Of a stretch of 58,445 nt of DNA, positions 31,700 to 32,522 are shown in pieces. The notes below the pieces were generated by a model. That model did no database searches and was not told the origin of the DNA. It saw only the letters and a program-made list of their open reading frames with translations. Position numbers and translations under genes: made by a program. This DNA comes from a virus, in UHGV virus genome UHGV-0021275. One strand, given 5' to 3'. Positions within the stretch are counted from its first letter, which is position 1. Every line of letters starts with the position of its first letter.

Positions 31700-31870
31700 A
31701 TTAGCCCGAACCCCGCGCGCTATTCTATGGCGTACCGATAACGCACTTTACAATTCTGCGAAATATTCACGCAGAAGTGCGTTAAAGTCTGTCATTGTTA
31801 CCCCTGCGTGTAAGAACGTTCACCATTGCCGCCCGTGCCCAATCGGGGGGCGGCAATAATTAACGGTCTG

Positions 31871-32398
31871 TCAGTAGTTGCGGAACACGTGCCCATCAAT
31901 AAACGTGTAGTCATTGATGAACAAATCACGCGCAAACTTCTCATAGTCGAAGTAGTAGCGCAGGTTCTGCGGGATCGCGTTCAGCTCGCCAGTCTCCTCC
32001 AGCAGCTGCACGGCGTAATCTTCCTCACTGTCTGCCGTTCCGCTGTAGGACTCGTAAAAATTTTCTACGTCGGTGTCGTGGAAGTCCCCGACAAACAGCG
32101 CGTAAGCCTCCGCCCACTCTTCGTTATTCTCTTCCAGCACCCGGCGCAATCCGTCGATATAGTCCCAGTTGATCGACGTATCCGAGACAGTGCCGCGCGG
32201 CATGTTCTCATAGTCCTGGAACATAAATTCGGGATCTGCTTCGTCGCTGTGCAGCTCCGCAATCTTCGCATAGAAGTCATCGCGATCGGTCACATCGTCC
32301 AGCAGGTTGATCCATTTACCTTCAATGCTGCCGTTGTTGTACTTCGCATACGTTCCAACATATACTGATGGCGCGGTAATGGTGATTTCAGTAGTCAT
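31871..32398 (-). CDS. ardA: ArdA-family anti-restriction protein (DNA mimic)
   Basis: From the internal Met of track ORF 31871-32617, AGGAG RBS. 175 aa, highly acidic. N-terminal YVGTYAKYNNGSIEGKWINL and C-terminal LLEETGELNAIPQNLRYYFDYEKFARDLFINDYTFIDGHVFRNY parallel remembered Tn916 ArdA signatures. Confidence 0.75.
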   Translation of the reverse strand: MTTEITITAPSVYVGTYAKYNNGSIEGKWINLLDDVTDRDDFYAKIAELHSDEADPEFMFQDYENMPRGTVSDTSINWDYIDGLRRVLEENNEEWAEAYALFVGDFHDTDVENFYESYSGTADSEEDYAVQLLEETGELNAIPQNLRYYFDYEKFARDLFINDYTFIDGHVFRNY

Positions 32399-32522
32399 AT
32401 TCCCTACTCCTGTGTGGTTTGTTGATTGGAAAAAACAGCCCACCATTGCCGCCCCCAAACCGAAGGTATGCCGGATAGCGTGTACGCTATCCGTGCCCCC
32501 GTGAGCGGCAATAATTCGCTGT

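Follow-up and report, generated by a model that had tools for sequence, protein, structure and literature searches.

Background

RNase III processing or alternative pairing of the message controls translation in the lambda N leader, adhE, the MS2 maturation gene and hok mRNA, and some of the Correia elements are RNase III targets. In conjugative plasmids, the anti-restriction gene ardA is classically driven by single-strand promoters. For RNase III of E. coli, the ideal substrate is 22 bp long, and cuts that it makes in one strand, at irregular sites, leave 3' hairpins with a stabilising role (PMC3867540). Here we describe two related hairpin modules, UP and DN, which flank the ardA gene on the minus strand of the virus genome UHGV-0021275 (58,445 nucleotides, the whole of which is called the window below). 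UP and DN represent a real, conserved and previously uncatalogued structured RNA element of the sense (minus-strand) transcript. We see about an even chance that this family serves as intercistronic modules of RNA processing or stability, acted upon most likely by the host RNase III, with UP also being a translational switch for ardA.

In their layout, UP and DN are like the early RNase III signals of phage T7 (R0.3, R0.5, R1, R1.1 and R1.3), which are paralogous hairpins that share a core and occupy the intercistronic gaps of an early polycistronic transcript made by the host polymerase (our folds of the T7 gaps, and PMC3867540). Two of the T7 hairpins, R0.3 and R0.5, bracket the anti-restriction gene 0.3/ocr, as UP and DN bracket ardA, and in both systems a lower stem, a weak or irregular middle and an upper stem add up to about two helical turns. 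The two also differ. There is no sequence homology, and the T7 core (AAGGUC...GGCCUUUAUGAU) is absent here. The middle consists of a nearly paired A.G/A-U/U.G/U.G patch, as opposed to the asymmetric internal loop of T7, and the upper stem is longer, with optional branched inserts; cleavage at our hairpins is predicted only. A covariance model of the new element found no match at the T7 R sites, with site coordinates after Dunn and Studier (1983), and its best score anywhere was 6.9 bits (E = 1.8). The T7 R sites are analogues of UP and DN, not homologues.

Two hairpin modules in the gaps around ardA

The ardA gene (31871-32398, minus strand) codes for a protein of 175 amino acids with a Pfam ArdA match (PF07275, E = 8.7e-33; PHROG 2059). 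Upstream of it lies the small gene orf54 (32523-32687, minus strand), taken from the list of open reading frames (ORFs) and also called in related genomes. Both gaps flanking ardA are non-coding. The UP module (32428-32529, minus strand) lies between orf54 and ardA; its inverted repeat folds at -56 kcal/mol as minus-strand RNA (z = -7.39), and the covariance model matches it at 32431-32528 on the minus strand with 68-80 bits, the plus strand reaching 17-25 bits. It consists of a lower stem, a patch of AAUU opposite GGUG, an upper stem with 13 bp or more, and an interior that is branched. The 5' arm (32505-32529, sense ...UAGACAGCGAAUUAUUGCCGC), delimited from sequence, alignments and pair counts, holds both the orf54 stop codon UAG (32523-32525), which forms the base of the stem, and the invariant AAUU (32513-32516). 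The 3' arm (32428-32455) reads GGGGCGGCAAUGGUGGGCUGU and then U6 in the sense direction; it contains the invariant GGUG at 32441-32444, and the U6 tail is at 32430-32435. This arm has two alternative partners, the UP 5' arm and codons 5-10 of ardA.

The DN module (31813-31869, minus strand) begins 1 nt past the ardA stop codon (UGA, 31871-31873). It folds at -32.5 kcal/mol (z = -4.35) and matches the covariance model at 31811-31873 (minus strand) with 64-66 bits; its AAUU is at 31858-31861 and its GGUG at 31821-31824. None of 200 shuffled sequences folds as well as the minus strand of DN or of UP. DN and UP rank second and third among the largest local inverted repeats of the window, and a covariance-model search finds exactly these two copies of the module there. 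The 5' arms begin at or 1 nt past a stop codon, and the 3' arms end ahead of the next Shine-Dalgarno sequence.

The original prediction had been that the two gaps carry the same inverted-repeat frame, and this is borne out: CACCATTGCCGCCC occurs exactly at 31821-31834 and 32441-32454, and GCGGCAATAATT exactly at 31850-31861 and 32505-32516. The repeats do lie in both gaps, a few bases away from the positions first given, and their arms are longer than described, namely 22 nt in DN (31813-31834 and 31848-31869) and 25 nt in UP (32428-32452 and 32505-32529). The inner hairpin proposed for UP is there as well, at 32472-32493 on the minus strand, as judged by the inverted-repeat scan, variant folds and the alignment; it is an optional part of the variable interior, missing from UP in four of the related contigs (L090, L093, L096 and L097; L numbers designate the genomes and contigs used for comparison). 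Folding of the minus-strand transcript, suggested as a check, gave the stable structures reported above. Two features had been overlooked, namely the segment inside ardA that is complementary to UP (32370-32384), and the fact that the apparent CACC/AATT mismatch between the arms closes on the minus strand as A.G, A-U, U.G and U.G. Finally, the statement that neither hairpin is followed by a U-tract is true of DN only, since UP is followed by U6 on the transcribed strand (GCUGU-UUUUUU, seen as A6 on the plus strand at 32430-32435).

This tail has a bearing on whether the hairpins are intrinsic terminators or attenuators, which would stop or pause the host RNA polymerase and lower the transcription of ardA and downstream genes relative to the upstream ones. 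In the window, UP is very stable and its lower stem passes directly into U6, and there are U5 in L083/L084 and U7 in L091 and L096. Yet these are the only cases of a U-run after UP among 14 relatives with distinct sequence; in most relatives the tail reads UUUAUC, with its U residues paired in the stem, and neither DN nor DN2, a third copy described below, has a U-tract. Thus, a hairpin with a conserved U-tract is not seen among the relatives, and a scan for consensus terminators lists neither UP nor DN. A strong stop ahead of an early anti-restriction gene would, moreover, defeat the purpose of that gene. We consider termination an improbable function of the family; the earlier view that these are not classical terminators stands for DN and for UP in most relatives, with the U6-tailed UP of the window as the departure from it.

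Covariation and the choice of strand

Pairs were counted in a 20-pair frame over 21 distinct elements, and then in a larger set that included the third paralog. In the 21 elements, 95.0% of the positions are paired, as compared to 35-69% when the partners are slid relative to each other, and six pairs have changed on both sides. With the third paralog added, 94.1% are paired and nine of the 20 pairs have changed on both sides, a number reached by 2 of 500 shuffles. The lower stem covaries freely, and the first 12 pairs of the upper stem are nearly invariant in sequence. Between the stems, the AAUU/GGUG patch, with its A.G, A-U, U.G and U.G pairs, is invariant in 17 of 17 distinct elements, including a copy in which the upper stem has been re-coded.

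The same data indicate which strand is folded. The sense strand accommodates 77 G.U cells and reaches its 95.0% pairing with their help, whereas the antisense strand is paired at 77.6%, and covariance-model scores are 64-80 bits for the minus strand and 17-35 bits for the plus strand. Every one-sided substitution gives a G.U pair on the sense strand (GCGGUAAU, GCUGC, GUGGC, ACAGU).

Two considerations weigh against reading too much into these observations. Sense strands in this operon are G-rich in general and fold better, so that part of the energy difference between sense and antisense is compositional; for this reason we rely on pair counts and on the direction of one-sided substitutions, not on free energies. 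Also, quasi-palindromes may undergo templated mutation, through which 'compensatory' changes could arise with no selection at work. The sense/antisense difference in free energy, which we had considered as evidence in its own right, was downgraded on account of the operon-wide composition.

Strand preference and covariation also bear on the proposal that the arms are sites in DNA, either for a repressor that binds the double strand or as single-stranded-DNA promoters or priming signals of the Frpo/ssi kind known from plasmid leading regions. ATT(G/A)CCGC is found five times in 700 bp, and a sequence similar to a -10 box, AATAAT, is present in the template-strand arm. Against this, the half-sites are anywhere between about 8 and about 60 nt apart, and in the lower stem the pairing is kept, with covariation and no conservation of sequence. 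It is the template (plus) strand that pairs worse, at the 77.6% given above, and in the shortest variants, for example that of L093, what lies above the putative -10 is no more than about 13 bp with a 4-nt loop, so that a -35 element has no space; a template-strand duplex equipped with both -35 and -10 elements, as in Frpo, was not found. In the relative L097, the two arms of UP and the ardA segment that can pair with UP have changed jointly and DN has not, which a DNA-binding protein shared by both modules would leave unexplained. The plasmid record that carries the element, pSTEC648_2, is typed non-mobilizable. On balance, DNA sites of either kind are very improbable.

The conserved outer frame, highly length-variable interior, strand-specific folding and position around a single gene also recall the attC sites of integrons. 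Here, however, the better-folding strand is the sense strand, and the attC boxes RYYYAAC/GTTRRRY cannot be read in the arms of DN (CAGACCGUUAAUU.../...GGUGAACGUUCU) or UP (ACAGCGAAUU.../...GGUGGGCUGU). No integron integrase was seen in a search that was not exhaustive.

Relatives and a third copy of the module

A protein search with ArdA retrieved ten clusters at 83-94% identity, followed by a drop to 53%. Both modules are present in the contigs L083-L097, many of which are 56-61 kb long, in pSTEC648_2 and in L001; a metagenome contig, L137, is a further member. The sole annotated relative is pSTEC648_2, a circular 60.5-kb E. coli 'plasmid' from a plasmid collection. The 22-position stem frame is kept among 15 related contigs, with the outer frame of UP reading GACAGCGAAUUAUUGCCGC ... 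GCGGYAAUGGUGGGCUGU and that of DN reading CAGRCCGUUAAUUAUUGCCGC ... GCGGCAAUGGUGAACGNYCU. The interior is hypervariable, from a 4-nt loop in L093 to a branched insert of about 55-60 nt, and some interior segments are common to UP and DN elements of different genomes. L091 stands apart in having lost the UP 5' arm and part of the upstream small genes (around 2420-2470), with GGUG changed to GAUG in the remaining 3' arm.

A diverged copy, DN2, was found by the covariance model after a 192-aa gene downstream of ardA in L093, L094 and pSTEC648_2 (matches at L093 3698-3756, L094 3699-3757 and L167 12105-12163). Its upper stem has been re-coded by four compensated changes, from AUUGCCGC/GCGGCAAU to GCAGCCAC/GUGGUUGC, and its AAUU/GGUG is unchanged. 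Three copies are found within the first 50 kb of the 60.5-kb pSTEC648_2 record. In L085 and L086 the module is cleanly absent from the same junction, the indel being flanked by a 10-nt direct repeat, ATACAGGGGG.

Such presence/absence polymorphism is what one might expect of DNA-level elements that have no function in RNA, whether mobile palindromes of the MITE/REP type inserted at gene junctions or recombination hot spots that bound exchangeable gene modules. Other observations in the same vein are GGAGTAG on both sides of UP, the different genes that follow DN in different relatives, with a deletion scar at this place in the window, and the interior segments shared between UP and DN of different genomes. 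The left direct repeat at DN2 is, however, part of the stem, so that deletion between short repeats fits as well as insertion does. Furthermore, there are just two or three copies, in a single operon and a single orientation, with none elsewhere in the 58-kb window or in the first 50 kb of pSTEC648_2, and the one further true member that turned up in scans of genome, metagenome and viral collections belongs to the same lineage. Nor would one expect a palindrome in DNA to show G.U pairing that depends on the strand, or a non-Watson-Crick patch that never varies. We regard a purely DNA-level explanation as unlikely to a considerable degree. The comparison with REP/BIME, ERIC and the Correia/NEMIS elements of Neisseria is instructive: those too are repeated imperfect intergenic palindromes that lie in operons, fold in mRNA and are polymorphic at junctions, but they occur in tens to hundreds of dispersed copies per genome, as compared to two or three in one operon of one lineage here.

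Across the viral, metagenome, genome, reference phage and plasmid collections, the element is found in this lineage only. Near and distant DNA searches of the phage collection had no match, nor did a near search of 5,426 complete E. coli genomes, and other ardA genes in the plasmid collection match in their coding nucleotides and not in their flanks. An ArdA-based scan of IMG/VR gave homologues of at most 64% identity (at most 49% for full-length ones), none of them with the element, and a two-arm pattern scan of the same collection gave two chance matches within tail-fibre or collagen-like genes. Pattern scans of metagenome and genome collections produced 64 matches, of which 63 are chance occurrences in coding sequence and one is the true member L137. 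No comparable hairpins were seen at distant ardA genes, on contigs from roughly 10 kb (L162) to 60 kb (L165/L166). The Rfam 15 covariance models gave only chance-level matches in 31600-32800 (MIR6425 with 16.2 bits against a gathering score of 142, and sR19 with 12.1 bits); a tRNA scan of the hairpin region was negative, and a scan for consensus promoters found no convincing one inside or adjoining the modules. Literature searches on ardA with RNase III or with phage-plasmids returned nothing relevant.

Conservation in related genomes, proposed at the outset as a check, is strong, both modules being present in all relatives found; the search for copies elsewhere yielded DN2 in some relatives and none in the rest of the window. 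Of the roles first suggested, processing sites and stabilising hairpins gain from the covariation, strand-specific G.U pairs, placement and conservation that mark UP and DN as a structure of the sense RNA, with the function itself inferred. Binding sites in duplex DNA are disfavoured, because the spacing of the arms varies and the lower stem keeps pairing, not sequence.

Possible processing by RNase III

The pattern as a whole, with a constrained frame of about 22 positions, a variable interior, G+C-rich stems on either side of a weak A/U and G.U centre, and an intercistronic site, fits post-transcriptional cis-acting modules, and processing or stabilisation is the best-fitting function. According to the mechanism that we propose, a small family of intercistronic hairpin modules would fold on the sense transcript of the leftward early operon, each module comprising a lower stem of 7-8 bp in which only structure matters, the invariant weak patch 5'-AAUU/5'-GGUG (A.G, A-U, U.G, U.G), an upper stem of at least 12-13 bp and a freely variable interior. 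Together, these parts constrain about 22 positions, a length that matches the RNase III substrates of E. coli. The cut, at or beside the weak patch, would be made by a double-strand-specific endonuclease, for which the host RNase III is the likeliest candidate. It would split the polycistronic early RNA around ardA, and the hairpins left at the new ends would set the stability of each piece, as happens at the T7 sites R0.3 and R0.5 around gene 0.3.

The measurements agree with this scheme as far as they go. Eight lower pairs, one mismatch position and at least 13 upper pairs add up to 22 sense-strand positions, within the double-helix length of about 20-22 bp that is expected for RNase III. 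In its proximal box, the enzyme prefers 'GC; AU/UA; AU; AU/UA', with G-C/C-G pairs at positions 2 and 4 acting as antideterminants (PMC1540722); the four pairs above the patch in UP and DN are G-C, U-A, U-A and A-U, which is compatible with this rule and lacks the antideterminants.

Other points tell against RNase III. DN2 has G-C and C-G at the would-be proximal-box positions 4 and 3, and G-C at position 4 is a published catalytic antideterminant, so the proximal-box fit is not family-wide. The case for this enzyme is one of architecture and analogy only. RNase III makes few demands on sequence, and the invariant AAUU/GGUG may instead be the mark of another factor that does recognise sequence. 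One could imagine that a dedicated RNA-binding protein or nuclease, of the phage or the host, reads AAUU/GGUG with RNase III uninvolved; the A.G mismatch and tandem U.G pairs that never vary in the 17 elements are something that RNase III alone would not demand. Family searches of the neighbouring small ORFs, however, gave no informative match and hence no candidate protein, and a dual pairing constraint can account for part of the conservation of UP. We think such a factor rather unlikely. A bolder proposal, unlikely in our estimate but worth spelling out, would make the modules an undescribed class of cis-regulatory RNA, in which the A.G/A-U/U.G/U.G patch is read by a dedicated factor, UP is a bistable leader that confines ArdA synthesis to a short period after entry of the DNA into a new host, as an RNA counterpart of the burst from plasmid single-strand promoters, and modules are possibly gained and lost at junctions as units. 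None of the rival explanations accounts for strand-specific pairing, covariation and placement at junctions as well as an intercistronic RNA module does.

Possible alternative pairing in the ardA leader

The 3' arm of UP (sense GGGGCGGCAAUGGUG) is also complementary to CACCAUUACCGCGCC, the sense sequence of ardA codons 5-10 (32370-32384, minus strand), which an inverted-repeat scan identified as a 15-nt segment with 87% complementarity. This pairing, helix 2, would enclose the ardA Shine-Dalgarno sequence (32407-32411) and AUG (32396-32398). Helix 1, formed by the two arms of UP, would leave the ribosome-binding site in an open A/C-rich leader, and helix 2 would close the initiation region into a loop. 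The energies of the two helices differ little, so the 5' arm would serve as an anti-sequestor, and the translation of ArdA or the lifetime of its mRNA would depend on which helix forms, or on cleavage of the hairpin.

Several observations agree with a second partner. Over 13 variants, helix 2 has 13-14 of 15 positions paired (89.7%), with duplex energies of -24 to -31 kcal/mol as compared to -26 to -31 kcal/mol for helix 1, and when the whole leader of L001, L093 or L097 is folded, the minimum-energy structure is helix 2. When the common U-variant of the arm was set against 2,334 background windows, nothing but the true 5' arms outdid the coding partner. That U, which pairs with both partners, is found in the UP 3' arm of eight out of ten variants, and the DN 3' arm, which has no second partner, always has C. 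Among relatives in which UP is intact, L097 is the most diverged, and here both arms and the coding partner have changed compatibly, the coding change being non-synonymous (Ile to Thr); this three-way compensatory change suggests a two-state leader. The GGUG to GAUG change in L091 weakens helix 2 in the very variant that lost the UP 5' arm. The partner segment precedes the conserved ArdA domain, as the Pfam match starts at residue 12, and the N-terminal tail is variable among homologues.

The case against helix 2 is also substantial. Behind it stands a single compensatory event, and 37 of 500 shuffles reach it; L095 has an uncompensated synonymous change in the partner; and the duplex of the window includes an A.C mismatch and ranks no higher than the top 2.3% among background windows. 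By published measurements, its start at about +15 coincides with the edge of the ribosome footprint, so that helix 2 may not block initiation. The absence of synonymous variation in codons 3-9 is unexceptional for ardA, and the test of such variation in codons 5-9 is uninformative, since similar invariant runs occur elsewhere in the gene. It is plausible, on weak support from sequence comparison, that UP may serve as a switch for ardA. A third partner was also sought for DN within the downstream gene, and rejected, as no complementary segment is present there.

In the leaders of lambda N, adhE, MS2 and hok, too, upstream sequence can pair with the start of the coding region, and a competing partner or cleavage decides the outcome. 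The difference lies in the position of helix 2: with its start at about +15, neither the Shine-Dalgarno sequence nor the AUG is paired, both being in the loop, so the sign of any effect could be repression, presentation or stabilisation.

Genomic context

The window is phage-like. Family searches identified a large terminase (38324-39814), a portal/adaptor protein and an internal virion protein, together with a family A DNA polymerase, a DUF927 primase-helicase, ParB and a RusA-like resolvase. No phage in the reference collection has a terminase with more than 33.5% identity to this one. Minus-strand genes run from about 33400 down to 9262, the structural genes are on the plus strand, and GC skew tracks gene orientation. 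In the ORF list, ardA is gene 4 of the leftward early operon, after ORFs of 153/183, 55 and 54 aa. The lineage is E. coli phage-plasmid-like and poorly described, with a single record in PLSDB and about a dozen contigs (draft or Logan) that are 50-61 kb long; in addition to the ParB seen in the window, relatives have genes of ParE/HigA-type toxin-antitoxin systems.

Right after DN, there is a 15-codon ORF (31748-31795, minus strand) with a match to the initial 19 nt of a gene for 127 aa, of which L083/L084 have an intact version. Judging by sequence, this ORF is a deletion scar, at a mosaic junction where the genes that follow DN vary among relatives. The gene after the scar (30851-31669, minus strand) codes for a YdcK-type beta-solenoid repeat protein (Pfam PF18836). 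A similar product, a 'polymer-forming cytoskeletal protein', is annotated at another position in pSTEC648_2.

Some other features of the window deserve mention. A Rv2179c-like 3'-5' exoribonuclease domain (E = 2.3e-49) is encoded by an ORF immediately upstream of the family A polymerase gene (19645-20202, minus strand); it may be a proofreading exonuclease, or may be relevant to the decay of RNA 3' ends. At the 5' end of the early operon, region 33321-33400 contains a hairpin that is very stable on both strands (-39.8 and -43.8 kcal/mol in an 80-nt window) and is terminator-like on the plus strand at 33366-33392. The largest local inverted repeat of the window (33836-33864 and 33934-33962, with 29-nt arms), adjoined by AT-rich palindromes at 33987-34032, lies where the early and structural operons diverge, close to the minimum of cumulative GC skew, and 33836-34032 is a candidate origin or operator region. 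Finally, positions 7595-7680 on the minus strand match the Rfam family AgrB (RF02891) with 48.1 bits (gathering score 40). AgrB is the antisense RNA in the type I toxin system dinQ/agrB, and the match suggests a type I toxin-antitoxin-like locus on the element.

Implications

Anti-restriction proteins are needed quickly after a mobile element enters the cell. A timing mechanism is known for T7, with its gene 0.3, and for conjugative plasmids, with their single-strand promoters, but not for phage-plasmids. The locus described here is a compact candidate for an RNA mechanism of this kind, with processing or stability hairpins that bracket ardA and a possible two-state leader, in a lineage that has no characterised relative. 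It also adds to the repertoire of structured RNAs an uncatalogued motif, one with no match in Rfam, clear covariation and an unusual invariant non-Watson-Crick patch. Even if the module turned out to be an ordinary RNase III site, it would still be a close and independent parallel to the early region of T7.

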